64,000 bases of DNA. Origin: Patescibacteria group bacterium (lineage in GTDB: Bacteria > Patescibacteriota > Patescibacteriia > Patescibacteriales > UBA12465). Below, in pieces: positions 3,068-28,754 of the stretch; position 1 is the stretch's first letter; every line of letters begins with the position of its first letter. A program made the translations under genes and the position numbers. The DNA lies in contig JBAZJV010000002.1 in assembly GCA_041651095.1 (NCBI GenBank), positions 43,621 to 107,620 of the forward strand, given 5' to 3'. A model generated the notes under the pieces. The model saw only the letters and a list, made by a program, of their open reading frames with translations, searched no databases and was not told where the DNA came from.

Positions 3068-3142
3068 ATGAAAAAAGTTTCAAAAAAACTGGCCAAAGCT
3101 GTGGCTCAAGCTGTTGGCAACTGGATTCCTTGGAGAGACTAG
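3068..3142 (+). CDS. Small ORF, 24 aa (MKKVSKKLAKAVAQAVGNWIPWRD), candidate precursor or small membrane-active peptide
   Basis: The ATG at 3068 is preceded by an AT-rich region containing tataat. The peptide has a Lys-rich amphipathic N-terminus and a C-terminal NWIPWRD. A strong hairpin and then an isoprenoid-synthase-like gene follow. It is too short to appear in the ORF track. Confidence 0.3.
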   Translation: MKKVSKKLAKAVAQAVGNWIPWRD

Positions 3143-3151
3143 CCAAAAAAT

Positions 3152-3184
3152 AAAAAGCGCCTTAGAAGGTGCTTTTTATTTTAA
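3152..3184 (+). terminator. Hairpin plus T-tract (intrinsic terminator or attenuator) between the small ORF and the downstream enzyme gene
   Basis: aaaaagcgcc-ttagaa-ggtgcttttt forms a 10-bp stem with one G-U pair, followed by attttaaa. Confidence 0.5.
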
Positions 3185-3194
3185 ACATAAAAAT

Positions 3195-3995
3195 ATGAAA
3201 ATAGAAAACATTATTGCGAACTGGCCTAAATTATTTTTGGAGGCTTTAACAGAAAAAAGGGACAACAATCTTATTAAAATATTATCTTCAGCTAATAAAT
3301 ACTGGTGGCTAGCTTATAATATATATGATGATATATTAGATGGAGATAGCGATGCGTTTCAACTTCCAATAGCAAATAATTACTTTATAAAATTTATATC
3401 CAGTTATTATAAACTAAATTTACCGAAGCAATTCTATCAAATTTTTGAAAAAACAATAACTAATGTAGAAAAGGCAAATAAATTAGAATTAAAGCAACAA
3501 AAATTAAAATTTAATGATGGTAAAATTATAATTCCCCAAATATTACCGGGGTTTACTGATTTAAAAATGCTATCTAAAAAATCATTAGCGTTATCATTAG
3601 GACCAATAGCTATAGCATACTATCTAAATTTAGGTCAGAGGAAAGTAAATTTATGTATAGAATTTTTTAAAAATTTTTTAGCTGCGAAACAATTATCTGA
3701 TGATGCACATGATTGGCTGGAAGATTTACAATCTGGCAAGATTACCGCCGCTAATAGCCTAATTCTAAAGGAGGCTAGGACTAATAAAATAGTTTTAGAT
3801 TTAAATAATCAACAATCATTATTTAAATTATTTTTAAAAATTAACTCTACAACTGGTAAAAATGTAATTAAACTATGCAAACAAGCCAATAAACTAGCAC
3901 TTAGAATCGGCTTACAAAAAAATTGCAAATTTCTCAATATCACTATAATTCCTATTCAAAATGCCGCGAACAGAGCTCTAAAGATCAATAACTAG
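3195..3995 (+). CDS. Class I isoprenoid-synthase-fold protein (ComQ / polyprenyl-synthase / terpene-synthase-like), divergent
   Basis: There are two Asp-rich motifs about 124 residues apart: YDDILDGDSD (nt 3327-3341, DDxxD) and KQLSDDAHDWLEDL (nt 3699-3725, DDxxD / DDxxDxxxD). The protein looks all-helical and AT-rich. I start it at the ATG at 3195 (MKIENIIANW) because the track start at TTG 3114 overlaps the small ORF and the hairpin. Confidence 0.45.
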   Translation: MKIENIIANWPKLFLEALTEKRDNNLIKILSSANKYWWLAYNIYDDILDGDSDAFQLPIANNYFIKFISSYYKLNLPKQFYQIFEKTITNVEKANKLELKQQKLKFNDGKIIIPQILPGFTDLKMLSKKSLALSLGPIAIAYYLNLGQRKVNLCIEFFKNFLAAKQLSDDAHDWLEDLQSGKITAANSLILKEARTNKIVLDLNNQQSLFKLFLKINSTTGKNVIKLCKQANKLALRIGLQKNCKFLNITIIPIQNAANRALKINN

Positions 3996-4016
3996 GACTA
4001 CTAATATCTAATCTAA

Positions 4017-4199
4017 ATCAACTATAAACCCGCATTCGACATGCGGGTTTATGATAAATATACGCTTAAAGAAGGAAGCGCACTTGAGAGACGAAAACTA
4101 CTAGCAAACCCTAGAAGCAGAATAGTACTAAAAAAAGAAGCTAACACTGTTAGAAAAATAAAAAACATCGGTATTAGTCAGATGTTTTTTAATAGATAG
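4017..4199 (+). pseudogene. 3' gene remnant, possibly the C-terminal part of a large serine recombinase (copy 1)
   Basis: The open frame reads INYKPAFDMRVYDKYTLKEGSALERRKLLANPRSRIVLKKEANTVRK... It has no plausible N-terminus and is about 75% nt-identical over about 90 nt to the fragment at 8135-8230. The ...LLxxLxSxIxLKDKKL pattern recalls recombinase C-termini from memory only. Confidence 0.3.
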
Positions 4200-4403
4200 A
4201 TTCTTTTACATCTTTTCACTGGAAATATCAAAAAATCTCTCAAAGAAGCTAGTTAACTTATTTAAAACGCTTTCTCTCTTTTTCCCATAACCACCAGGAG
4301 AAAATCATGATGGTTTATTTACCATAATTTTTGTTATTGCCGTCACTGTTGTAGTAACACTGCCATCACTAAAAGCATTTTTTATAAATGTATAAGTGGC
4401 ATC

Positions 4404-4919
4404 TTAACCAAGCTTATTCTCATCCATCAATATAACGACTAAAGCGTTGAGAGTTATATAACCATTTTTAATTAGAAGGTTATCTCTTTTGTCATTTGGA
4501 TTTTTACTGCCATGAAATAAGTTATTTCTGATAACATGCCAAAATTCAATCATGTTTTTCCAGTCATCCAAATTTCTTATTTTGCCTCGTTCATTAATAT
4601 TAGAGTAATCCCAATATTTCAAACCATGTACTATATCACTATTCTGATCCACTTCGCCTATCGGTAATTTATCTAACTCATTTTTTATTTTTGTCCACGA
4701 AGAATTTAAAATGCCATCTTTTACTTTTTCGATATATAAGGATTTAACATATTCATCATTTTTGAGTTTCCTTAAGGCTTTCCAATCTTCATTTTGATCT
4801 ATATATATTTTTCTTTTTAGCAAAGCAATAAAAGCTAGATATTCAAAAATAAATTTAGAAAAATATTCTTCTTCCGATGCTTTAGCGTGCCAATTTTTTA
4901 TCAGGTTATCAAAATTCAT
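4404..4919 (-). CDS. HEPN-domain protein (putative RNase), fourth gene of the OLD/UvrD operon
   Basis: 171 aa. An Rx4H motif sits in FWHVIRNNLFHGSKN (R131/H136, His codon at 4512-4514) in a C-terminal helical context. The start lies 1 nt after the stop of the upstream gene. Confidence 0.55.
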   Translation of the reverse strand: MNFDNLIKNWHAKASEEEYFSKFIFEYLAFIALLKRKIYIDQNEDWKALRKLKNDEYVKSLYIEKVKDGILNSSWTKIKNELDKLPIGEVDQNSDIVHGLKYWDYSNINERGKIRNLDDWKNMIEFWHVIRNNLFHGSKNPNDKRDNLLIKNGYITLNALVVILMDENKLG

Positions 4920-4920
4920 A

Positions 4921-5367
4921 TTATTTTATATTATTTTTTCCTATTTCTTTGCTTGCAATATTATGAACTGTCTTTGCTTTTGTTTTTATGTCGTCTGGTA
5001 ATTCAATTAACATAATCTCTATATCTAATGGGGTTTTACCAGTCGATATTCTTTTAAAAAAATTATAAAAATTTTTATTAGTTAAAACTAATATTTTTCT
5101 TTTTGCTTTAACTAACGACAACATGTATATGTCAAAATAGATTGATTTTACCGATCCTACTCCCGCCCTGCCATTTTCTCTAGTCTGATGTGACTTGATA
5201 TCCCCGATAATATTTTTATCTAGCGACACTATATCAAATTTATGGCTTCCCCCAGTCACTAATTTCAATTTTATGTCTTTATTATAAAACTCACATCCTA
5301 TTTTTTCTCTCAGTCTCTCCCTGACATAGGGCTCAATTAGCTGCGATAATATTTTTGTATTTGCCAT
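4921..5367 (-). CDS. Small PD-(D/E)xK-like (restriction-endonuclease-fold) protein, third gene of the operon
   Basis: 148 aa. It has N-terminal helix acidic residues (EPYVRERLRE), then KFDIVS (D45) and IIGDIKS (D56-x-K58), which is the classical D...(D/E)xK spacing. It lies 6 nt downstream of the helicase stop. Confidence 0.4.
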   Translation of the reverse strand: MANTKILSQLIEPYVRERLREKIGCEFYNKDIKLKLVTGGSHKFDIVSLDKNIIGDIKSHQTRENGRAGVGSVKSIYFDIYMLSLVKAKRKILVLTNKNFYNFFKRISTGKTPLDIEIMLIELPDDIKTKAKTVHNIASKEIGKNNIK

Positions 5368-5373
5368 ATATTT

Positions 5374-6423
5374 TTAATCTATAACAAATACTACACTATA
5401 TTTTGCTCTAGTAACGGCCACATATAACTTTGGGATGTCGCCAGCCTTTGAAATGTCGTTAGTGCTTAAATATGTTAACATTGGTTTTGTCGGGAAAATT
5501 AAAACTCTATCATATGTAAGCCCTTTTGAAACGCCAATGTTAATAGCGCGCAAACCCATTGAATCCGAATCTATTCTATATTTTAATATTGCAGGTTTAA
5601 ACTTTTCTACATAACTTAAAACATCTTTTCCCGCAATGTTAAAAATTCCATCGTGACCTGTTATCTCAATATTAGTTGACGTTGTCTTTGGCATATTAGG
5701 AAATAACGCGTCAGCAAAATCACATATTTTTTGATTACATCGATGACATTCACATTTTTCTTCCAACGAAATTAATTTCTTTTTTTCTAATTCCTTCGCC
5801 CAGTAAAAAATTCCCCCTCTTTTAAATTTTCTATTCTTTGAAGAGTTATTAGTGCTAAACGTAGACTGACGCGGGTCGCCAACTGCTGTTATAAAAATAT
5901 TGGAATTAAAAAGTTTTTCCATAATATTTAAATCATAGCCAGATAAATCCTGCAGCTCATCGACGAAAACAAAATCGTAATTTTTCTGAAGACGATGAAT
6001 TACTAAACCACTGCTCATATCGTCTACATGGACAACAAATTCTGAAACTCTATCTCGGAATATATCATTATTTTCAGAAACAAAATAAGTTTTTGCATGT
6101 TCTTTTCTTGAATATTTTACGTAATTTGGTAAATTGGAGAATATAATTCCATTAATTCGCTGCTCAATAATAATATTTTGATATGGATGTACCCCATCTT
6201 GAAAAAGAAAAGTGTACCAAGAAAGTATGGTTACGTTTTTAGGAACGTGGCCAATTTTTTTAATAAAAAATCCTCTAATTTGTTCCAAATTTTCATTGGT
6301 ATAAGTAGTAATTAATATTTTTTTGTCGGGTAATTTCAATGCCTCATTAACAATAAATGTTGTTTTACCTGATCCAGCGCTTGCAATAACAATTTTATTT
6401 TTATGAGATAGCGTCGTTGACAT
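5374..6423 (-). CDS. Compact UvrD/Rep-like SF1 helicase (GajB-like)
   Basis: SF1 motifs are present: ASAGSGKTT (I), ITTYTNE (Ia), FVFVDELQDLSGYD (II), AVGDPRQS (III) and LYVAVTRAKYSVVFV (VI). The likely start is the ATG at 6423 (MSTTLSHKNK), which overlaps the OLD gene's 3' end by 23 nt. The track start at 6456 is a TTG. Confidence 0.8.
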   Translation of the reverse strand: MSTTLSHKNKIVIASAGSGKTTFIVNEALKLPDKKILITTYTNENLEQIRGFFIKKIGHVPKNVTILSWYTFLFQDGVHPYQNIIIEQRINGIIFSNLPNYVKYSRKEHAKTYFVSENNDIFRDRVSEFVVHVDDMSSGLVIHRLQKNYDFVFVDELQDLSGYDLNIMEKLFNSNIFITAVGDPRQSTFSTNNSSKNRKFKRGGIFYWAKELEKKKLISLEEKCECHRCNQKICDFADALFPNMPKTTSTNIEITGHDGIFNIAGKDVLSYVEKFKPAILKYRIDSDSMGLRAINIGVSKGLTYDRVLIFPTKPMLTYLSTNDISKAGDIPKLYVAVTRAKYSVVFVID

Positions 6424-8005
6424 AATCTGGCATATTAATACTTTCTTCGCTCTCAAATATTTTTAAGGCACAGTCTGTTTTATTATTCTCCATATACTGT
6501 ACAAGTGCTTTTTTATCTTTCTTGGTTCCAAAAATTTTATTCAATACGGCTATATCATTGCAGGCGACAATATTTGGCTCTAATGTATTCAATTTATTGT
6601 CATCGCTAGAACATACTTTTATTCTGCCCGTGCCTATATACGCTTCATATTTTTCAATTACATTTTTTTGATAATCATGATCATTATCAGTAACAACAAC
6701 TACATCCTTACCCAGTTCTTTTGCAATATCCAAAAATCTAGTGAAAGAAAGTCCTCTAACATTTATAACATCTACGCCATCTTCGATTGGCAATTTCCCA
6801 TACTTCATGATATATGCTTTCTGAATTAAAAGTTCATCAGACGGTCCTTCTACTAATATTGATTTATTCGCCAAAATTAGTCTTAGAGTATCGTACCCAG
6901 AAAGTTTTTTAAAATAATTTTGAGTATCAATTGGTAAATTTCTTAAAAAGGCTTTGTTGTTATTATAAATAAAAATAAGTTTGTCTATCCCCAACTTATT
7001 CAAAACATAGGCACTGTGGGTTGTTATAAATATTTGCTTGCCTCCACACCTATTTTTTATTTTACTTATAAGTTTATTCATTGAAGAAAAAGACAGGTGA
7101 TTTTCTGGTTCCTCAATTAAAATTACATCTGATTTATCGGCCTGTCTTTCTAAGGCTAACATTATTTTTAAAGCGTTTTGTTCTCCTTGGCCGGCTAACT
7201 GAAACGGGATACCGTCTAAATGAGGCACCAGGTTAGTTTCCCAATTTGCTTTTTGTGAAATATCAATCGATATCGCGAGGTCTTTATCAGTGATTACCCC
7301 TTTGCGCTCTGTTAGTTTGTCATTAATGCCCTTTATTGATGGCTCATCAGAAAATTTTTCTTTTAAACTCCTGTAAGTAATAGCAAGAGCCACTTTTTCT
7401 CTGGCTTCCAGGCCGCTATTTATTATATTCTGCAAATAATAGTCTGTTCCGCTTTGCAGACGTATAGATGTCGCATCTATGAAAGATGTATTTACAGGAA
7501 AACTTCTTGGAGCTACGGATTTATTTGCAAATGAGTGCCAGTAGATTTTATAATATTCTGTTGGGATCATCTTAATTTCGGCTCTATTTTCTAGTAATTT
7601 ACTATAATCATCTCTGTAGTCTTCATCAAATGTAATTTCCACCTTAACTCCTGGGCAATCTTCTCTTTCTGAATTATTATTACCAATCAATATTTCAGTT
7701 CCTTCAATTTCAGAAAAATATAACTCAATAATTATTTTTGGTAAGTCTGGATTCCCCCCTTTGTATATATTAGACAAATAGTCATTAACGCATTCCTTAT
7801 TAAACAAGTAGGGCGATAGCTCCGTTTCTGCGAACCTCCCATTAATCTTTTTTGTTAAGGCTAGATTTATTGCCTCAAGAATTGTAGACTTACCAACTTC
7901 ATTATTGCCAACTAAAATATTTAAATCTGAATTAAAATCCAGGGTAAATAATTGGAAAAGTTTATAATTCTGTATCTTGATTTTTTTTATCATAGAAATA
8001 ATCAA
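6401..8005 (-). CDS. OLD-family ATP-dependent endonuclease (ABC-type ATPase + Toprim; GajA-like)
   Basis: 534 aa. It has Walker A GNNEVGKST, signature/Walker B region LIEEPENHLS, FITTHS, and a C-terminal Toprim domain with ILVEGPSDELL and VVVVTDNDHD. Confidence 0.85.
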   Translation of the reverse strand: MIISMIKKIKIQNYKLFQLFTLDFNSDLNILVGNNEVGKSTILEAINLALTKKINGRFAETELSPYLFNKECVNDYLSNIYKGGNPDLPKIIIELYFSEIEGTEILIGNNNSEREDCPGVKVEITFDEDYRDDYSKLLENRAEIKMIPTEYYKIYWHSFANKSVAPRSFPVNTSFIDATSIRLQSGTDYYLQNIINSGLEAREKVALAITYRSLKEKFSDEPSIKGINDKLTERKGVITDKDLAISIDISQKANWETNLVPHLDGIPFQLAGQGEQNALKIMLALERQADKSDVILIEEPENHLSFSSMNKLISKIKNRCGGKQIFITTHSAYVLNKLGIDKLIFIYNNNKAFLRNLPIDTQNYFKKLSGYDTLRLILANKSILVEGPSDELLIQKAYIMKYGKLPIEDGVDVINVRGLSFTRFLDIAKELGKDVVVVTDNDHDYQKNVIEKYEAYIGTGRIKVCSSDDNKLNTLEPNIVACNDIAVLNKIFGTKKDKKALVQYMENNKTDCALKIFESEESINMPDYVNDAIS

Positions 8006-8056
8006 TTATAGCTATATTCGAATTTAAAAATTTAGTATCAAAATAAAATTTTCTAA

Positions 8057-8264
8057 AGGGATTACCCCCCCTCCCAGGATATTCGAGTGTTTTATATAAA
8101 TATCCAACAAACGACCCGTCATAATGAAAACGCCAAACCCGCAGTCGATATGCTGGTTTATGCTAAATATGTACTTAAAGAAGGATATGCCCTTGAAAAA
8201 CGGGAGTTGCTGGCTAATTTGAAAAAATAGGATTATATTAAAAGATAAAAAGTTGTTATATTGA
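8057..8264 (+). pseudogene. 3' gene remnant, possibly a large serine recombinase C-terminus, frameshifted (copy 2)
   Basis: The frame reads ...ENAKPAVDMLVYAKYVLKEGYALEKRELLANLKK* (stop at 8228-8230) and continues in the +1 frame as RIILKDKKLLY* (8229-8264). It is homologous to 4026-4130. It overlaps the 3' end of the convergent R-M gene. Confidence 0.3.
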
Positions 8265-10580
8265 AGATGAGTACGGCAGAGATTTTATATAATTTTCAAT
8301 AAATTTCCAATCAGGGTCTTTACCATTTGCTGGCAACTTTATACTCCTTTCTTTTAAGCGAGTTTGACTAGCTTTTCTTCCATAATTATACCTATAACGT
8401 TCCAAATTAATAATGGTAGCTAAAAATAAACCGATATATTTATTCATCTTAAATTTTGGACACAATTTTTCTACGTGATCGCTGGCGGAAAAATTAAACG
8501 GTTGATAAGCACAAAATCCCAAAACAGCACTATCAACAGTTAATATGTTGCCAGCTTCTGTATGATAATTATAAAAACCAGCAATGCCATTATTCGTTGC
8601 CTGAGTAGTCACAAATGGAAATTCCCCTTCACCAAATTCTTCTAAATCAAGAATTGATGTTGTTTTACTGCCAGTAATATTAAAAAGTTTGTCCAACGAA
8701 AAACTCTTCCATTTTTTTACTTCCAATTCGTACTTATTTTTGTTAACCGGATTAGAAAGAATATTATTTGTCATTTGATTAGACAGAAGAAACGAACAAT
8801 ATTCTACTAATGTTTTTTCAAAATCTTTTCTAACTAGACCAGAATAGTCTGTTTCCATATATGCCTCCGGGCACCATTCATCTTTTGCTGTTATCTCTTT
8901 AGTTACACTGAATCCAGGAATAGTTTCTCTGTTTTGATAATTAACTATCCACTTGTTTTTTATTTTTCTTTCAAATTCTTCATATAAATCAATCCGCCCT
9001 TTAGTTTTTCTTTTTACAAAACCATCTTTCTTATAATAGCCAAAATAAGTCTTTTTCCCTGCTGGATGTGGTCTTTTGGCCGTAAAAACCATTACACAGG
9101 CAACAACTCCGACATCAGAATTAAAAAATAATTCGTCAGGCATGCTAAACACCGCCTCAAGGGTGTGCTGACTTAAAAGTTTCTTTTTCCATTCATATAT
9201 ACGACCAGATTGAGCTAATGCGCTTTGCATTGGCACAATAGCAACGCATTTACCGCCCTGCACCAAACATTCCAAGTTATCAAATACGAACTCCAACTCT
9301 TCAGTATCCTTTTTCTTGTCAGATTTATAAGGGGGGTTAAGTAATCCGGCAGTTGGTTTAAATTTTTTTACTTTTTTGATTATCTCACCATCAAGACAGC
9401 TACCATTTAAAATATTACTCTTCCCGTCTTGATGAATAAACATGTTGCTACAAGCCAAAACAAATATATGCGCCTGATACTCAACACCCACTAGCTGATT
9501 CTTTTTTATATTTTTTATTTTACGCAAATCATCTTTCGCATCTTCTATCATTATACTCATTGCCGAAACAAGAAATCCGCCAGTTCCAACACAATTATCA
9601 TATACAATGGAATCTTTATTAACCTCGGCAATTCGCGCCATAAACTCGGTAATATGAAGAGGTGTCAAAACTATCCCGAGCCCTTTATCACTATTAGCAT
9701 AACGCAAAAATTCTATATACAATTGGCCTAAAACATCAATGTACTTATGTGTTTTAATAAAATCTTTAATATTTTCATTTATGCTAGAAATTATATCTCT
9801 TAATACATTTGCCTTTTTTGACAAGGACGTATCTGTTTTGATAAAGGCGAGTCTGCCACTTATAACATCTAATTTTTCCTTCTGAATCCCACCGTTTTTA
9901 AACTCCATATCAACAGTATCAACCAAATATTTGGCCAAGTCCTCTGGCTTACTATAATTTTTATAAGATGCTTCAAATGCTTTGTTTTCTAACGCTATCA
10001 AAATACAAGCTATCAATAAAGCTCTTTCACTTTCTACTATTTTATGACTATGTAGCGTGTCATTTAAATCCTTGGAAAATATTATCAATTTATCGTAATC
10101 CTGTCTGAATTTTTCTGGACTCTTTATGTAGCCAGTTAGATACTCTTGTGAAGATAAAAATTTATCAGAAAACTTTGGCAATGCTTTTTGCTCACCTTTT
10201 AATTGTAAAAAGTGGGAAATTTTAAGTTCTTTTTTATTTTCCCCACTGACAGCTATAGACAATACATCATATTCCCTCGATAGATATGCTGAGTATAATA
10301 ATGCACCGTCAACAGCGTAATCTCTGTATTGATCTAGGGTGGAGCTTTCGTGTTTTTTAATATCCGCTTTGCATTCTACCAATATCAATAAATCGGGGTT
10401 ATTTCTAAATTGCATTATAAATTCTGGATGACCAGCTCCATTGCCAGCTTTAGACGCTGTTGATAATAATTTTTTAATTTTAGGATTGTCTGATGATTGC
10501 TCTTCAATAATTAATTCTGCTGTGTATTTCTTAAAATGTTCCCTGGTTATATTTTCAGTTTTTCTCTCATTTTTAGCCAT
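8256..10580 (-). CDS. Single-chain restriction-modification enzyme (Type IIG-like): N-terminal PD-ExK nuclease + gamma-class N6-adenine methyltransferase + C-terminal specificity (TRD) domain
   Basis: 774 aa. It has NNPDLLILVECKAD (PD...ExK), YDNCVGTGGFL (SAM motif I) and GLLNPPY (motif IV NPPY). The C-terminal 170 aa resemble an HsdS TRD (LDKLFNITGSKTT...FPFVTTQATNNGIAGFYN...RLKERSIKLP). Confidence 0.75.
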   Translation of the reverse strand: MAKNERKTENITREHFKKYTAELIIEEQSSDNPKIKKLLSTASKAGNGAGHPEFIMQFRNNPDLLILVECKADIKKHESSTLDQYRDYAVDGALLYSAYLSREYDVLSIAVSGENKKELKISHFLQLKGEQKALPKFSDKFLSSQEYLTGYIKSPEKFRQDYDKLIIFSKDLNDTLHSHKIVESERALLIACILIALENKAFEASYKNYSKPEDLAKYLVDTVDMEFKNGGIQKEKLDVISGRLAFIKTDTSLSKKANVLRDIISSINENIKDFIKTHKYIDVLGQLYIEFLRYANSDKGLGIVLTPLHITEFMARIAEVNKDSIVYDNCVGTGGFLVSAMSIMIEDAKDDLRKIKNIKKNQLVGVEYQAHIFVLACSNMFIHQDGKSNILNGSCLDGEIIKKVKKFKPTAGLLNPPYKSDKKKDTEELEFVFDNLECLVQGGKCVAIVPMQSALAQSGRIYEWKKKLLSQHTLEAVFSMPDELFFNSDVGVVACVMVFTAKRPHPAGKKTYFGYYKKDGFVKRKTKGRIDLYEEFERKIKNKWIVNYQNRETIPGFSVTKEITAKDEWCPEAYMETDYSGLVRKDFEKTLVEYCSFLLSNQMTNNILSNPVNKNKYELEVKKWKSFSLDKLFNITGSKTTSILDLEEFGEGEFPFVTTQATNNGIAGFYNYHTEAGNILTVDSAVLGFCAYQPFNFSASDHVEKLCPKFKMNKYIGLFLATIINLERYRYNYGRKASQTRLKERSIKLPANGKDPDWKFIENYIKSLPYSSSI

Positions 10581-10606
10581 ATTTTTATTTTTTTCTTTAT
10601 AGGGGT

Positions 10607-22274: not shown

Positions 22275-22673
22275 TTAAATTTCTATCAGCGGAATAGATT
22301 GCCTGGGAATCCGGCGGACTTTCACCCGCCGGTGTCCCTCTCGCATCAGCCTAACCAGGCGGTGGACGCCGTCCAATATTTCCAGCCGGCCGCCCGGGTT
22401 CTCAATAATATCTATCGGATAACGGATGTCGGCACTCAGCACGCGATCTTTATGATCAGGATAGGCTTCCAGATCTTCTAAAACCAGGCGAGGGCAAAGC
22501 CGGTATTTTACCCCTTCATGCGCCCAAAAGGGCAGATCCAGCTGCCACTCCAAAAGACTGGTCTCGATTTCTTCAACCGGCAGGTCCAAAGCCCAAATTT
22601 TCCGGTTATCCCAGTGGAAATCCACGCCTTGTTCGCGGATCTCGGGGGGTAATGTATCATAGTCGCGCCGCAT
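22275..22673 (-). CDS. ParB/Srx-fold (ParB N-terminal-like) domain protein
   Basis: 132 aa with LEILDGVHRLVRLMREG, which matches the DGxHR core of ParB-like nuclease/NTPase domains. Confidence 0.45.
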   Translation of the reverse strand: MRRDYDTLPPEIREQGVDFHWDNRKIWALDLPVEEIETSLLEWQLDLPFWAHEGVKYRLCPRLVLEDLEAYPDHKDRVLSADIRYPIDIIENPGGRLEILDGVHRLVRLMREGHRRVKVRRIPRQSIPLIEI

Positions 22674-22763: not shown

Positions 22764-24122
22764 ATGAAGAAAGGCGTTTCGCTATTCATTCCCCTAATTT
22801 TAATAGCGGCCAGTCTGGCTTTAACTCTGTCCGAACCGGGTATTTATCGTACGGCTTTCGCCCAAACCGGACAGAATGCCGGCTGGGAGCAGGAACGACT
22901 GCAGTTACAACAGCAGCTTAAAGAAATAGAACAAGAAATCGCCGCCGCTGAAGCCTCTTTAGGTAAAGTCCGGTTCCAAAAAAATACCTTAGCCAATAAG
23001 ATCCAGCAATTGAAAATCAGGCAGGCCTCCCTGACTCTAAAAATCAAGGCTAGCTCCTTGCAACTGGAGCAATCTACTATCAGCCTGCTGCAAATCCAGG
23101 CTCAAATAGACCAGAATGCCGCGCAGGTTACCGCCGCCCAGGATCAGCTGGCCGCGGTCTTAAACAAGCTGTGGCAAGAGCGGCAGGTTTCGCTCTTCAA
23201 CCGGCTGCTGACGGCCGACAGTCTGGCCGGCTTCTTCAATGGCATGCATGATTTGGAAAATGTCAGCCGGGGCATCGCGGCCATGAGCCGGAAATTGCAA
23301 GACGAAAAAGCGGATTTGGAAAATAACCGGCAGTCCTTAGCCGAAGAGCAGCAGGCGCAAGCCAGTTTTTTCAACATCATTTCCCTGCAGAATTCCGAAC
23401 TGACGGCTAACCTCCAGGACCAAAATGATTTATTGCGGCAAACCAAGGGCCAGGAAGCTAATTACCAATCCCTGATCAAACAGAATCAAGCAACGGCTAA
23501 CGCTATCCGCGGCCGCATCTACAGCTTAATCGGCACCGCCCAACAAATTAATTTCGGCGAAGCCGTGCAAATCGCCACCTGGGCCTCTAGCCAGACCGGC
23601 GTCCGGCCGGCTTTCCTGCTGGCTATTCTGACCCAGGAATCAAATCTGGGCCGCAATGTCGGAACTTGCAACCGGGCCGGCGATCCGCCCAGCAAAAGTT
23701 GGCGCGTAGTGATGAAGCCGGAGCGCGATCAGGAGCCGTTCAAAAAAATAACCGGTGAGTTAGGTAAGAATATCGACACCACGCCGGTCTCCTGTCCGAT
23801 GCGCGATAAGAACGGCGATCAAGTCGGCTGGGGCGGCGCCATGGGCCCGGCCCAATTCATTCCCTCCACCTGGCTAGGCTATCGCGATAAGGTCAAGGCG
23901 ATTACCGGCCAAGCTGCCAATCCCTGGGATATCCGCGATGCCTTTTTGGCGGCCGCCATCAAGCTCAAAGCCGACGGCGGAGCCACGCCGAGCGGCGAAT
24001 GGGCGGCGGCGATGCGCTATTTCTCTGGCTCGGCCAATACCGCCTACCGTTTCTACGGCGACAACGTCGTCGCCATGGCAGATAAATACCAAAGCGATAT
24101 CGATGAGTTGAATAAAAAATAG
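22764..24122 (+). CDS. Secreted coiled-coil protein with a C-terminal lytic transglycosylase (SLT-like) domain
   Basis: 452 aa with a signal/TM N-terminus and a long Gln/Leu-rich coiled coil. It has LLAILTQESNLG (catalytic Glu-Ser) and GAMGPAQFIPSTW. Confidence 0.7.
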   Translation: MKKGVSLFIPLILIAASLALTLSEPGIYRTAFAQTGQNAGWEQERLQLQQQLKEIEQEIAAAEASLGKVRFQKNTLANKIQQLKIRQASLTLKIKASSLQLEQSTISLLQIQAQIDQNAAQVTAAQDQLAAVLNKLWQERQVSLFNRLLTADSLAGFFNGMHDLENVSRGIAAMSRKLQDEKADLENNRQSLAEEQQAQASFFNIISLQNSELTANLQDQNDLLRQTKGQEANYQSLIKQNQATANAIRGRIYSLIGTAQQINFGEAVQIATWASSQTGVRPAFLLAILTQESNLGRNVGTCNRAGDPPSKSWRVVMKPERDQEPFKKITGELGKNIDTTPVSCPMRDKNGDQVGWGGAMGPAQFIPSTWLGYRDKVKAITGQAANPWDIRDAFLAAAIKLKADGGATPSGEWAAAMRYFSGSANTAYRFYGDNVVAMADKYQSDIDELNKK

Positions 24123-24136
24123 GCCGAAAGGGCCTA
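24120..24136 (+). terminator. Weak hairpin overlapping the stop codon
   Basis: taggcc-gaaag-ggccta, with no T-tract. Confidence 0.3.
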
Positions 24137-24204
24137 CAAACACAACTTTTATCTAGTATAAAATTCTCAAAATGGTACTATTTTATTAAGAAATTTAATC
24201 ACTA

Positions 24205-24813
24205 TTATACTTTAATTTTATACCACCTCGAATCTCTTATGTTTTTGATCTTTATACCCACAGAGCCAACTGACAGTTTGCTAATATTTTGTAAATAGTC
24301 GAATAACTGCTGTTTTGGGGCATTTGGCATAAAATAATACTCTTCTTTATGAATAATATTCAATACACCTTCTTTCAGTGAGTTATAATTTTTTTCATCA
24401 CCGTTAGCCTTTTCCGCCCAATCAAAGATGTGATTCTGCGCTACGCGCGATTTTTGATCCATCGCTGTAATCAGATAAGATTTTATTAACTTTATAGATT
24501 CCTCTGCCAATGAACAAGATTTAAAAAAATCGGATATTTTGTTGATTTCATTGCTATCAAAATTTTTTACAAATAGGTGTTGCAACTCATTCCAGTGATT
24601 TGAGGGTAAAATATAACTATAATCACTTATTGCCTTACTTTCTTTTATTTTTTTAATTTCTCTTTCTGCAGTATAAATTTCATTTAACAGAATATTTGCG
24701 GCCTCAATTTTTTTATCTCTCTTGCTATATAAATAAACCAGCCAAGCTACTAAGCCGGTAAATATGGTAGCTAAACCATTAAATAAATTTTCGAAAAAAT
24801 AATCCATACACAC
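24205..24813 (-). CDS. Hypothetical N-terminally membrane-anchored protein, third gene of the TA islet
   Basis: 202 aa, AT-rich. It has one N-terminal TM helix (LFNGLATIFTGLVAWLVYLY). The track start is a GTG sharing nt 24813 with the toxin stop; an ATG at 24807 is a plausible alternative. Confidence 0.5.
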   Translation of the reverse strand: MCMDYFFENLFNGLATIFTGLVAWLVYLYSKRDKKIEAANILLNEIYTAEREIKKIKESKAISDYSYILPSNHWNELQHLFVKNFDSNEINKISDFFKSCSLAEESIKLIKSYLITAMDQKSRVAQNHIFDWAEKANGDEKNYNSLKEGVLNIIHKEEYYFMPNAPKQQLFDYLQNISKLSVGSVGIKIKNIRDSRWYKIKV

Positions 24814-25196
24814 TATAGCCTATCAATGTTTGGCACACTACCTAAATAATTCTTTATTCTATCTTTATTTTCATTTTCTTTATCGCTTTTATAGTATATT
24901 TCGAACCAAACTACTTTTTGAGTAGATGGACACCAGGTGTAAATTACTCTTATTCCACTTTGGTTACCCCTTCCCTTTAATGATTTACAGGCAAATTTTT
25001 TTATTTTCCAGAAGCTGACCATATTGCAAACACAACCCGGAATTTCAAAAGTACTCATGTTATTGATGTTTTTTAAGTGCCGTAATTCAATGACCGCCTT
25101 TTTGACGGTTTCCAAATCATCCGGTAAGGAAGGGAATCTTCTCATCAGCTTTTTTAAGTCTTTTTTAAACTCGTCTGACTCTTCATATTCAATCAT
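24813..25196 (-). CDS. RelE/ParE-superfamily-like toxin
   Basis: 127 aa. The pattern DEFKKDLKKLMRRFPSLPDDLE ... GNQSGIRVIYTW...VVWFEIYYKSDKEN resembles RelE/HigB-type mRNA interferases. It overlaps the upstream antitoxin gene by 8 nt. Confidence 0.55.
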   Translation of the reverse strand: MIEYEESDEFKKDLKKLMRRFPSLPDDLETVKKAVIELRHLKNINNMSTFEIPGCVCNMVSFWKIKKFACKSLKGRGNQSGIRVIYTWCPSTQKVVWFEIYYKSDKENENKDRIKNYLGSVPNIDRL

Positions 25197-25953
25197 AACT
25201 TCTAACCGAAAAATCAGGCGTGCGGTAGAAAACGGCTTCGTAATCTATGACAGACTGTTCTTCTGCGGTTATCCAAGGCACATCTCGATGGGAATATTCT
25301 TCCATCTCCTTGGCATTTTTATCAGATAATCTAGCCAAAACCCAATCTATGTGCTTTTGTTCTTCTGCTGTAATAAGAGACAAGTCTGGATTCCGTAATG
25401 GCAAATACTTTTTTTGTTGATATTTATATCTTTGTCTGATGGCAGGGGTAATTTCCTCTTTTTCTTCCATCTCTGCGATAATTCTGGTAAACGCCGCGGG
25501 GGTTGGCCCATGATGATTTTTTATATATACAGCACCCATTAATTGTTTCTCGTATCTTTCATAAAAATCAAAATCAATAAAATACATAAGCTTACAAAGG
25601 ACGCTCTCGCCTATATTAGGCTTCGCCCCTATCCGCCCAAGAACATACAGAAGGACTTCTTTAAATTTTTTCATATTCTTCTCTGGCACGGAAATTCGCA
25701 TGCTCGACATTTTATTTGTTTTAGTTTTCTCTTTTTTAACTACCAATACTGGTGCTGGCGGTACTCTATTAGCGATAAAATCGGTAAAAGAGATACTTAA
25801 AAAATCGGCTAACTTTTCCGCTTGTGAAACTGTAAGATCTTTTTCCCCTTTTTCTATTTCACTAAAAGACGGCCTTGAAACATTAATTAATTTGGCTAAT
25901 TCATCTTGAGAATAACCATGCTCTTTTCTTAACTGTTCAATTATAGTAATCAT
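25189..25953 (-). CDS. XRE-family HTH fused to a Panacea (DUF4065, SocA/PanA-like) antitoxin domain
   Basis: 254 aa. The N-terminal HTH reads QDELAKLINVSRPSFSEIEKGEKDLTVSQAEKLADFL. The C-terminal region reads LLYVLGRIGAKPNIGESVLCKLMYFIDFDFYERYEKQLMGAVYIKNHHGPTP, typical of DUF4065. Confidence 0.75.
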   Translation of the reverse strand: MITIIEQLRKEHGYSQDELAKLINVSRPSFSEIEKGEKDLTVSQAEKLADFLSISFTDFIANRVPPAPVLVVKKEKTKTNKMSSMRISVPEKNMKKFKEVLLYVLGRIGAKPNIGESVLCKLMYFIDFDFYERYEKQLMGAVYIKNHHGPTPAAFTRIIAEMEEKEEITPAIRQRYKYQQKKYLPLRNPDLSLITAEEQKHIDWVLARLSDKNAKEMEEYSHRDVPWITAEEQSVIDYEAVFYRTPDFSVRSYD

Positions 25954-25993
25954 AGCTTAATTATTTATATAATTATTATAACTATTGCAAAAA

Positions 25994-26030
25994 ATATTGT
26001 CAATATGTATGTTAATTATATTAACAATAT
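25994..26030. promoter_or_regulatory. Imperfect inverted repeat, candidate operator for the XRE-Panacea protein
   Basis: atattgtcaat (25994-26004) pairs with attaacaatat (26020-26030) with one mismatch, 40-75 nt upstream of the antitoxin start. Confidence 0.35.
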
Positions 26031-26108
26031 AAAGTTCTCTATACAAAGCGGGGCTCTATATAAGACGCGGCAAATAGCATATTTTCACAATTTTTCGCCA
26101 ACCCAAGT

Positions 26109-26384
26109 TTAACGGTGCAGACAGCCCGGCCAACAACAAGGGCGACGCTGCCCCTCCTTAAGCTCGGAACATACTCTTTTGACGTGCTGTTGTCTGGTCT
26201 CTGGTTTTTTAACGGAAATAATCCAACAAATCCACTCGTTGCGCGCTAAGGGCGTAATATCCTGCCAGGCCGCCAAAGCTAATTGGTCGGCCGCTAAAGC
26301 CTGACGTAAATCCGGCGGTATATTATGCACTACCCCACCGGGTATCCGGCCGCGAAATGCTATTTTATTATATCTTTCTTTCAT
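26109..26384 (-). CDS. YdeI/OmpD-associated (OmdA) family protein
   Basis: 91 aa with PPDLRQALAADQLALAAWQDITPLARNEWICWIISVKKPETRQQHVKRV. Confidence 0.7.
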   Translation of the reverse strand: MKERYNKIAFRGRIPGGVVHNIPPDLRQALAADQLALAAWQDITPLARNEWICWIISVKKPETRQQHVKRVCSELKEGQRRPCCWPGCLHR

Positions 26385-27262
26385 ATTGGTCTCATTACAT
26401 AAACCACCGGATCCTTCAACAAGTCTGCCACCCGATCCCGCGGCAAATCGATCTTGGGCGGCGACACTAAATCATCAAACACTTCCATAAAACTGTGCCG
26501 CTCGACGCTAAATCCCGATTCAGCAAAAAATTTGGTGGCCGTTTCCTCGTTATCAAAGCTATTGGCATTAACATCAATTCCAGAAAATAATAATATCCTC
26601 TTCCGATTATCTTCTCTTTCTTCCTTTTGCTCAGTTTTGAGTAGCCGTTTCAAAGTAATGTCAGAAGTGATCCAGGCGCCACCGAATTTTTCTAGTAAGG
26701 CGCGGATGTTATCGGCTACTTTCCTTTTTTCGTCAAAACTCAAATAACGCAACAACCCCTCATGGACTACTGTAACCGGCTTAGGCGCGAAGTGTCGCGT
26801 GGCCGCCATTACCGAATCTTGATCCAGGGCGTTGCCGTCTTCTACATATAGATTACCGGGCCACTTGATGCCATTCTGGGCGGCCAAATTTTGCAATAAG
26901 ACTCTTTTGTTCCTGGCCATTTCCGGCAAATCCAGCTCGACATAAGTTAGCGATGGATCGGCCTGCGTCATCGCCAACCCTCGCCCGACCAAGCCGGCGG
27001 CTAGCTCCAAAATTTGGCCGGTTGGATTGGCCGCGATCATCTTATCGATCAACTTATAGCGCGCCTCGATTTGCGGCGCGATCTTCGACTGCCTCGCGCT
27101 ATCCATATACGCGATCTGGGCGGCATCGGTCGGCTTGACTATCCGGTCCAGTTCTTCGAATATCTCTTTGGCGTATTGGATATCCGAAAAAGTCCGGTGC
27201 CAGGCTACGCCCCAGGCCGTCGGACCGACTTTTTCGTAATTGCCATTGGTTGGTTCGGACAT
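26381..27262 (-). CDS. Class I SAM-dependent methyltransferase
   Basis: 293 aa with motif I ILELAAGLVGRG. The overall layout is O-methyltransferase / Leu-carboxyl-MT-like. Confidence 0.55.
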   Translation of the reverse strand: MSEPTNGNYEKVGPTAWGVAWHRTFSDIQYAKEIFEELDRIVKPTDAAQIAYMDSARQSKIAPQIEARYKLIDKMIAANPTGQILELAAGLVGRGLAMTQADPSLTYVELDLPEMARNKRVLLQNLAAQNGIKWPGNLYVEDGNALDQDSVMAATRHFAPKPVTVVHEGLLRYLSFDEKRKVADNIRALLEKFGGAWITSDITLKRLLKTEQKEEREDNRKRILLFSGIDVNANSFDNEETATKFFAESGFSVERHSFMEVFDDLVSPPKIDLPRDRVADLLKDPVVYVMRPI

Positions 27263-28680: not shown

Positions 28681-28754
28681 TGGCTGCGGGACCTGGATTC
28701 GGACCAGGATAAACGGCTCCAAAGGCCGCTGTCCTACCATTAGACGATCCCGCA
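28681..28754 (-). tRNA. tRNA-Gln (anticodon UUG), CCA encoded
   Basis: The minus strand reads TGCGGGA-TC-GTCT-AATGGTA-GGAC-A-GCGGC-CTTTGGA-GCCGT-TTAT-CCTGG-TCCGAAT-CCAGG-TCCCGCA-G-CCA. It has a U1-A72 pair and G73, as in bacterial tRNA-Gln. The T-loop reads TCCGAAT. Confidence 0.85.

Follow-up and report, generated by a model that had tools for sequence, protein, structure and literature searches.

Does an AT-rich islet of three co-directional genes encode one tripartite toxin-antitoxin (TA) system, or a two-gene TA cassette followed by a gene of another kind? The islet (24140-26100) lies in a 64,000-nucleotide stretch from a Patescibacteria group bacterium (assembly GCA_041651095.1, contig JBAZJV010000002.1, positions 43,621 to 107,620 of the forward strand), called the window below. 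Its genes are g1, a putative Panacea antitoxin, g2, a predicted RelE-like toxin, and g3, a predicted membrane-anchored protein. A sequence-only reading had taken the islet for a single low-GC insert and had proposed g3 as a second effector or sensor of the TA system. The low GC stands (0.326 against 0.491 for the whole window), but the islet seems to be made of two independent units, the TA cassette and g3, and not of a single insert. We consider it very probable that the locus is a two-gene type II TA cassette of the PanAT kind followed by the unrelated gene g3.

25189-25953, minus strand: g1, open reading frame (ORF) of 254 aa
24813-25196, minus strand: g2, ORF of 127 aa
24205-24807, minus strand: g3, 200 aa from the ATG at 24807 (an alternative GTG at 24813 gives 202 aa)

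The predicted antitoxin-toxin pair

A scan of one genome per species yielded 194 relatives of g2, and 80 of the loci were kept. An ORF matching the Panacea region of g1 lies directly upstream of the g2 homolog and overlaps it in 77 of these loci. The remaining 3 are cut by contig ends, so that every testable locus (77/77) carries the upstream Panacea ORF, of about 260 aa. All 8 upstream partners sampled were HTH_3 plus SocA_Panacea proteins by Pfam. By contrast with this constant partner, a g3-family ORF was found within about 4 kb in none of the 80 loci using family-level hidden Markov models (HMMs). Reciprocally, family HMMs detected no g2-family gene in the g3-family loci other than the window (about 14 contexts), and no Panacea gene is present in these contexts either. 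The close homologs of g3, about 10 proteins of 56-67% identity, sit after dCMP deaminase, NUDIX, RNase H or unknown genes and before ComEC, ArsR, MazG or SLT genes; no Panacea, XRE-Panacea or RelE gene was present in their contexts. The sampled loci thus give no support to g3 as a third component of the TA system. The role of second effector or sensor is contradicted by the 80 pair loci, and the survey of g3 neighbourhoods, which the sequence-only reading had itself named as a way to refute its proposal, revealed no TA linkage within the sample. What appeared to be a tripartite PanAT with a membrane effector dissolves on neighbourhood comparison.

The g2 loci come mostly from Patescibacteria lineages, the others from metagenome-assembled genomes (MAGs) labelled Gammaproteobacteria, Nitrospirales, Desulfobacterales, Terriglobia, Margulisiibacteriota and others. 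The g1-g2 pair is lower in GC than its flanks in 58 of 66 loci, with a mean difference of -0.05. The cassette, formed by the operators, the promoter, g1 and g2 in about 1.2 kb, is a widely distributed unit found mostly in Patescibacteria. In other loci the genes located 3' of it vary in family, size, strand and spacing, the gap to the next gene being often 1-41 nt. They encode arginyl-tRNA synthetase (ArgRS, 3 loci), a PD-(D/E)XK nuclease (4 loci), GNAT, HD and NUDIX proteins, an ABC ATPase and others. Since the same cassette abuts ArgRS, NUDIX and GNAT genes, tight spacing is usual here and cannot serve as a functional argument; in compact Patescibacteria genomes, a gap of 0-10 nt to the next gene is no sign of functional linkage. 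Co-transcription of g3 had been deduced earlier from a start 0-5 nt from the toxin stop. The gap is real, with 5 nt between the g2 stop (TAG, 24815-24813) and the g3 ATG, but it does not indicate that the genes work together.

The PD-(D/E)XK genes (L048 4369-5070, L060 759-1550, L079 4360-5130 and L080 2375-3148) are homologous, encode 233-263 aa and are located 1-9 nt after the toxin gene. Present in 4 of the 80 loci, they may represent a sporadic accessory gene of the TA family or reflect the shared ancestry of the four genomes.

The g1 protein is organised as an N-terminal XRE helix-turn-helix (HTH; residues 5-59, Pfam HTH_3, E 5.5e-13), a linker and a C-terminal Panacea/DUF4065 domain (PF13274; residues 119-227, SocA_Panacea E 5e-17, 63.3 bits for a cutoff of 25.7). 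Both Pfam models score above their cutoffs, in agreement with the earlier description of the gene as an XRE HTH fused to DUF4065/Panacea; the peptide then quoted is present in g1, and the 8-nt overlap with g2 announced at the same time is seen in the ORF coordinates (ATGATTGA). g1 is predicted to be a PanA-type XRE-Panacea antitoxin that would also act as a repressor.

Homologs of the g2 protein number more than 711, with lengths of about 118-127 aa, and some of them are labelled RelE by JGI. Since they extend over its N-terminus, we prefer the start that gives 127 aa to that of the recorded 110-aa gene call (P0011). A profile built from 29 members matched the Vibrio cholerae HigB2 (VcHigB2) chains among the PDB sequences with an E-value of 2e-4. 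The AlphaFold2 (AF2) model computed from the 29-sequence alignment (predicted local distance difference test, pLDDT, 85.8; predicted template modelling score, pTM, 0.81) folds as strand-helix-helix-four strands-helix. Foldseek searches of the PDB with this model returned HigB2 first (E 1e-3), then RelE, YoeB, HP0892 and YafQ. The top matches were exclusively RelE-superfamily toxins, with probabilities of 0.98-1.00 and target-normalised template modelling (TM) scores of 0.58-0.66. Profile and predicted fold thus agree with the RelE/ParE-like character assigned to gene 2 from sequence, and support its assignment as a RelE-superfamily toxin closest to V. cholerae HigB2.

The active site of VcHigB2 is formed by Arg51, Arg64, Tyr82 and Lys84, and replacing Arg64, Tyr82 or Lys84 with Ala decreases activity 350- to 3000-fold (PMC5416850). 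In the HMMER alignment, R83, Y101 and K103 of g2 fall on Arg64, Tyr82 and Lys84. Y101 and K103 are invariant in the 29-sequence family alignment and R83 is kept in at least 90% of the sequences. The Arg51 position falls outside the HMMER alignment, the candidates in g2 being the conserved K64, K66 and K67 on the preceding strand. On the basis of these residues, g2 is predicted to be a ribosome-dependent mRNA endonuclease.

HigB2, encoded by higBA2 (PMC5416850), is the closest solved relative of g2 by both sequence profile and predicted fold, and the two share a glycine- and lysine-rich b2-b3 loop (KGRGxxSG), although their identity is only about 20%. The genetic setting differs from that of higBA modules on two counts: the antitoxin is an HTH-Panacea protein and not HigA2, and the antitoxin gene comes first, whereas higBA starts with the toxin. 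Thus, the likeness to HigB2 concerns the toxin and does not extend to the module, which is no higBA module. Given a Panacea antitoxin in place of HigA2, neutralisation must differ from the mechanism of HigA2, which uses an N-terminal helix and strand. The toxin clade comprises more than 700 sequences undetected by Pfam and always paired with an HTH-Panacea antitoxin in the sampled genomes; together with the operator consensus described below, it would offer a convenient model for the neutralisation of a RelE-fold toxin by Panacea.

Promoter, candidate operators and the PanAT comparison

The elements controlling and ending the unit are the following.

25975-26003, minus strand: sigma-70-type promoter, TTGACA-17 nt-TATAAT, 12/12 consensus match, ending 22 nt before the g1 ATG
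26010-26026, no strand assigned: candidate operator O1, perfect palindrome TGTTAATATAATTAACA, exact consensus TGTnAA-N5-TTnACA, 7 nt upstream of the -35 hexamer
25986-26002, no strand assigned: candidate operator O2, TGACAATATTTTTTGCA, 2-mismatch copy of the palindrome, overlapping the -35 hexamer and the promoter spacer
24119-24137, minus strand: intrinsic-terminator-like hairpin GTAGGCC-CTTTC-GGCCTAT followed by TTTTTTATT, at the end of the g1-g2-g3 unit

The promoter is the only 12/12 site in the region, and O1 the only exact match to its consensus in the 64-kb window. Among 71 loci, 8.5 kb of upstream DNA contains 30 exact copies of the motif (3.5 per kb), against a single copy in the other 490 kb of these loci (0.002 per kb), an enrichment upstream of the pairs of more than 1000-fold. 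Tolerating up to 2 mismatches, at least one site is present in 60 of the 71 loci and at least two in 48. The layout recurs in most of the 70 homologous upstream regions read: the palindrome, about 6 nt, a second copy beginning in TTGACA, then the -10 element; comparable TTGACA...TATAAT/TATACT elements are found in the homologous loci. The sequence-only reading had placed the operator in an 11-bp inverted repeat at 25994-26030. A conserved upstream palindrome lying over the promoter is indeed present, but that repeat is not the unit: it is complementary at 10 of 11 positions and straddles O1 and O2.

Since the candidate operators overlap the -35 hexamer and the spacer, the operon is predicted to be auto-repressed, probably by g1 acting on these candidate sites through its HTH. 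In the proposed mechanism, PanA dimers would bind O1 and O2, two 17-bp palindromes, by their N-terminal XRE HTH and repress the promoter, and the C-terminal Panacea domain would bind and sequester the HigB2-like toxin. The toxin would act by entering the ribosomal A site and cleaving translating mRNA. Loss of PanA would thus both release free toxin on A-site mRNA and de-repress the operon. The 8-nt overlap suggests translational coupling of g1 and g2. By its position, g3 would belong to the same transcription unit, being probably transcribed by read-through from the PanA-controlled promoter down to the hairpin (24137-24119). The minus strand has no terminator-like site between g1 and the end of g3, and the hairpin borders on the stop codon of the SLT gene, which runs convergently.

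The PanAT study of Kurata et al. 2022 counted 343 PanAs with an N-terminal HTH and recorded RNase and ParE/RelE-superfamily toxins as PanA partners (PMC8832971). The window cassette resembles these systems by its Panacea antitoxin with an N-terminal HTH, its adjacent co-directional toxin gene and a pairing kept across many species. It differs by a toxin clade that has no Pfam model and, among the genomes sampled, comes mostly from Patescibacteria MAGs, the main text of PMC8832971 making no mention of Patescibacteria or candidate phyla. It differs also by the conserved dual operator TGTnAA-N5-TTnACA, described here and not in that paper. The sequence-only reading regarded a third component as foreign to the PanAT layout. 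This is inexact, as the paper allowed three-gene architectures and reported 25 sporadic 'accessory' clusters (PMC8832971). The window cassette is an ordinary two-gene TA cassette, of a kind often met in tiny uncultured bacteria. Its interest lies in the toxin clade undetected by Pfam with its obligate Panacea partner and in the operator consensus, to which the locus adds an unnamed family of Patescibacteria membrane proteins, that of g3.

The family of g3

A profile search of 1.84 billion representatives retrieved 564 clusters related to g3 at E<=1e-3, of about 190-240 aa and matched end to end. Members of the family were seen in this analysis only in Patescibacteria. g3 itself is 100% identical to the MAG hypothetical protein WC453_01325 [Patescibacteria group bacterium]. 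Because all homologs begin with MDYFF or similar, its start is placed at the ATG 24807 and not at the GTG 24813. Of the 202-aa protein with one N-terminal transmembrane helix described earlier, the transmembrane segment is kept and the length becomes 200 aa, from the preferred ATG.

The HMM searches advised for this gene returned no known family, in agreement with the function left blank in the first description: g3 has no relative in Pfam, NCBIfam, PADLOC, PHROG or PDB sequences. Two weak candidates, Cmr5 (PADLOC, E 0.0036) and phrog_35817 (E 0.043), were rejected as chance matches. Comparing 46 family members with Pfam, PADLOC and NCBIfam gave nothing consistent, with one marginal PADLOC match, and the family profile produced only noise against PDB sequences (E >= 0.26). 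The AF2 model of g3, computed from a 10-sequence alignment, is all-helical and unusable (pLDDT 45.7). With the g3 alignment, a scan of the viral collection found no relative and a scan of metagenomes one new complete locus. Searches with tblastn gave no match for g3 in the phage collection and none for g2 in the phage and plasmid collections, so that these searches tie neither gene to a known type of mobile element.

The N-terminal hydrophobic segment is kept in 43 of the 46 family members, and 44 of the 46 have more K/R after it than before. According to the positive-inside rule, this excess points to an N-out/C-in topology, and g3 is predicted to consist of an N-terminal anchor and a cytoplasmic helical domain of about 170 aa. 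The family genes have a GC of 0.25-0.36 and a GC content at third codon positions (GC3) of 0.15-0.36, well under the flanks in most genomes and about equal to them in L092 and L099.

Several family genes are preceded directly by a co-oriented tRNA gene: tRNA-Gln(UUG) at 893-964 in L004 (22 nt away), tRNA-Gln(CUG) at 1116-1189 in L008 (99 nt) and tRNA-Lys at 3886-3958 in L093 (42 nt). At the beginning of the L005 and L007 contigs the sequence looks by eye like a tRNA 3' end, but ARAGORN calls no tRNA there. The window has a co-oriented tRNA-Gln(UUG) at 28681-28754, 3.9 kb upstream of g3, and the convergent SLT gene just downstream of g3. An SLT homolog (51% identity to that of the window) comes after g3 in L007 and, in L004, is found about 1.9 kb downstream of it. 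In all-against-all BLAST comparisons, the only recurrent neighbours of g3 were SLT (window, L007, L004) and patatin (L001, L093). The simplest reading would be an ancestral tRNA-Gln - g3 - SLT neighbourhood. In the window, the TA cassette stands directly upstream of g3, and the block from PfkB to ydeI also lies between tRNA-Gln and g3.

About 35 nt past the g3 stop, L004 contains a 13/16 copy of the tRNA T-arm region (AGAGCCGAATCCTATC), which may be an att-like remnant (att, attachment site). No duplication of the tRNA 3' end was found downstream of g3 in L008, L093 or the window. A repeat search of 23900-26400 gave no convincing flanking direct repeats. With only the weak L004 copy and no flanking direct repeats, an integrase-type att structure is not supported.

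Three side observations concern these neighbourhoods. L001 (2907-3839) and L093 (2960-3799) have homologous patatin-like phospholipase genes (41% identity) upstream of g3-family genes, and the g3 proteins of the two are only distantly related to each other (64% against 28% identity to the window g3). L090 encodes, downstream of its g3 homolog, a 144-aa ORF (2036-2470) with an R-x4-H motif (FRSSAIH) suggestive of HEPN, without Pfam or PADLOC match. A 69-aa XRE HTH gene is also located divergently upstream of the g3 homolog in L090.

Alternative readings and surroundings of the islet

Several points weigh against the reading of a two-gene cassette with an unrelated gene behind it. The domains, the fold, the constant pairing, the conserved operator motif and the lack of g3 linkage are observed, but that g2 is toxic, that g1 neutralises it and binds DNA, that the three genes are co-transcribed and in which order the events took place are what we infer. 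The same holds for the order in which the cassette arrived; no ydeI-g3 junction without the cassette occurs among the genomes seen, no dedicated search having been made for it. g2 is assigned to its family through matches of its profile to PDB sequences and of its predicted fold, which are moderately strong (TM about 0.55-0.65). In the HMM search recommended for the toxin, which led to HigB2 with the family profile, the curated models gave no significant match: none in Pfam at E<=0.1, and a sub-threshold one with TIGR02385 RelE_StbE (E 0.04, 14.4 bits for a cutoff of 27.9). The operator motif was derived by visual inspection of the very upstream regions that served for its count, although the enrichment is far beyond what such a definition could produce. 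Only about 14 g3-family contexts were inspected. Finally, the 5-nt spacing between g2 and g3, their shared low GC3 and the lack of an intervening terminator would also be expected of a functional three-gene operon.

The alternative that survives best, although unlikely, makes g3 a stand-alone gene of defence or abortive-infection type, brought beside the TA genes by the clustering of immune genes and not by chance, and possibly controlled by PanA. Stated for the whole family, an equally doubtful proposal, g3 and its relatives would be unrecognised membrane-anchored immune or abortive-infection genes, carried as single-gene cargo into the 3' flanks of tRNA genes and into other immune operons or their tail ends. 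One such context is that of the distant member P0282 (33% identity to g3; L096-L098 4001-4606, Gottesmanbacteria contigs), which lies within a type I restriction-modification (R-M) operon ordered hsdM-NYN-hsdS-[g3 family]-hsdR-YgjP-like and is separated from one neighbour by 1 nt while overlapping the other by 4 nt. Its place between hsdS and hsdR is that of PrrC in its R-M locus (PMC3458546). P0282 shares with PrrC-type genes (PMC3458546, PMC2610378) the same kind of slot and the overlapping frames but no sequence or domain similarity, g3 having no ABC ATPase or nuclease domain, and only one such context was seen. Another family member, P0283 (L103 1112-5606), is about 1 kb from a divergent pair of SIR2_2 and DUF87/HerA-like genes resembling the SIR2-HerA defence system, and a third, P0303, follows an HD/HD_assoc protein with a PemK TA pair 3 kb away. 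The patatin genes upstream of family members in two lineages (L001, L093) are counted among these contexts. In no genome checked are the family genes less AT-rich than their flanks, and they are often adjacent to a tRNA. Against an immune role, roughly half of the contexts consist of ordinary housekeeping genes (NUDIX/NDK/AspRS, RNase H/RecJ/ComEC, MazG, FUR/Zip), the 46 members compared gave no consistent PADLOC, Pfam or NCBIfam match, and there is no usable structure model of g3. The contexts are few, and the associations came to notice post hoc, without a background rate. If g3 were immune cargo, its expression in the window would be gated by the PanA repressor, and a trigger removing PanA would free the RelE-like toxin and de-repress g3 together. 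Whatever the role of g3, an unnamed, AT-rich, tRNA-adjacent family of membrane proteins with occasional defence contexts in Patescibacteria justifies a systematic survey.

Much less probable is a tripartite system in which g3 would act with g1 and g2 as a membrane-anchored second effector or sensor. It would account for the 5-nt distance, the low GC3 common to the three genes and the single terminator, placed after g3 with none before it. Sporadic accessory third genes are moreover known for some PanAT pairs (PMC8832971). The comparison of loci decides against it, with no g3-family gene near any of the 80 g1-g2 pairs and heterogeneous genes downstream of them, no Panacea or g2-family gene in the other g3-family contexts, and a separate synteny of g3 with tRNA-Gln and SLT. 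Known tripartite TA systems (paaR-paaA-parE; TAC, toxin-antitoxin-chaperone; mazEF-mazG) have the same three co-directional genes with a tightly spaced third one, but in these the third gene is conserved with the pair.

A ParE-type gyrase poison in place of a RelE/HigB-type mRNA endonuclease is, for g2, slightly more improbable still. ParE and RelE have one and the same fold, and ParE is among the toxin domains recorded beside PanA (PMC8832971). However, the best sequence and structure matches of g2 are the mRNases HigB2, RelE, YoeB and YafQ, and the conservation of the HigB2 catalytic Arg, Tyr and Lys positions across the g2 family favours the RelE/HigB-type mRNase.

The least credible proposal sees in g3, which has a transmembrane helix, an additional toxin that would act on membranes, as the membrane-depolarising PanT toxins do, and be neutralised by the PanA of the cassette. 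Panacea antitoxins do neutralise toxins with transmembrane helices (PMC8832971), but many predicted toxins of this kind are small peptides (PMC8832971), whereas g3 has a conserved, predicted-cytoplasmic domain of about 170 aa, and its relatives occur in all other contexts without a Panacea gene or a recurrent small partner, where a toxin could not persist alone.

The composition and surroundings of the islet are as follows. GC3 is 0.31 in g1, 0.36 in g2 and 0.29 in g3, for 0.39-0.65 in the flanking genes. The flanks encode housekeeping and cell-wall functions: a coiled-coil SLT transglycosylase, YdeI/OmdA, an LCM-type methyltransferase and a PfkB kinase, and further FtsEX, a D-Ala-D-Ala carboxypeptidase and phosphoenolpyruvate (PEP)-utiliser proteins. 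Between the ydeI stop and O1, at 26037-26070, two tandem 17-nt copies (CTCTATACAAAGCGGGG / CTCTATATAAGACGCGG, 76% identical) coincide with the GC-content boundary of the islet.

Elsewhere in the window, the region 3.2-10.6 kb (GC 0.28-0.33) is even lower in GC than the islet. This larger, more AT-rich island (3100-10600) looks like a defence island and may be a Gabija-like system. It comprises, on the minus strand, a 774-aa N6-adenine methyltransferase-like protein with an NPPY motif (8256-10580), a 534-aa OLD-family ATPase/TOPRIM protein matching GajA (E 1e-10) and AriA in the PDB (6401-8005) and a 360-aa UvrD-like P-loop protein without PDB match (5374-6456). Two small ORFs follow at 4404-5367, one with an R-x4-H, HEPN-like motif (RNNLFH). 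Finally, a 132-aa ORF located by the SLT gene (22275-22673, minus strand), without Pfam match at E<=0.1, has a DGVHR motif reminiscent of ParB/sulfiredoxin-type domains.

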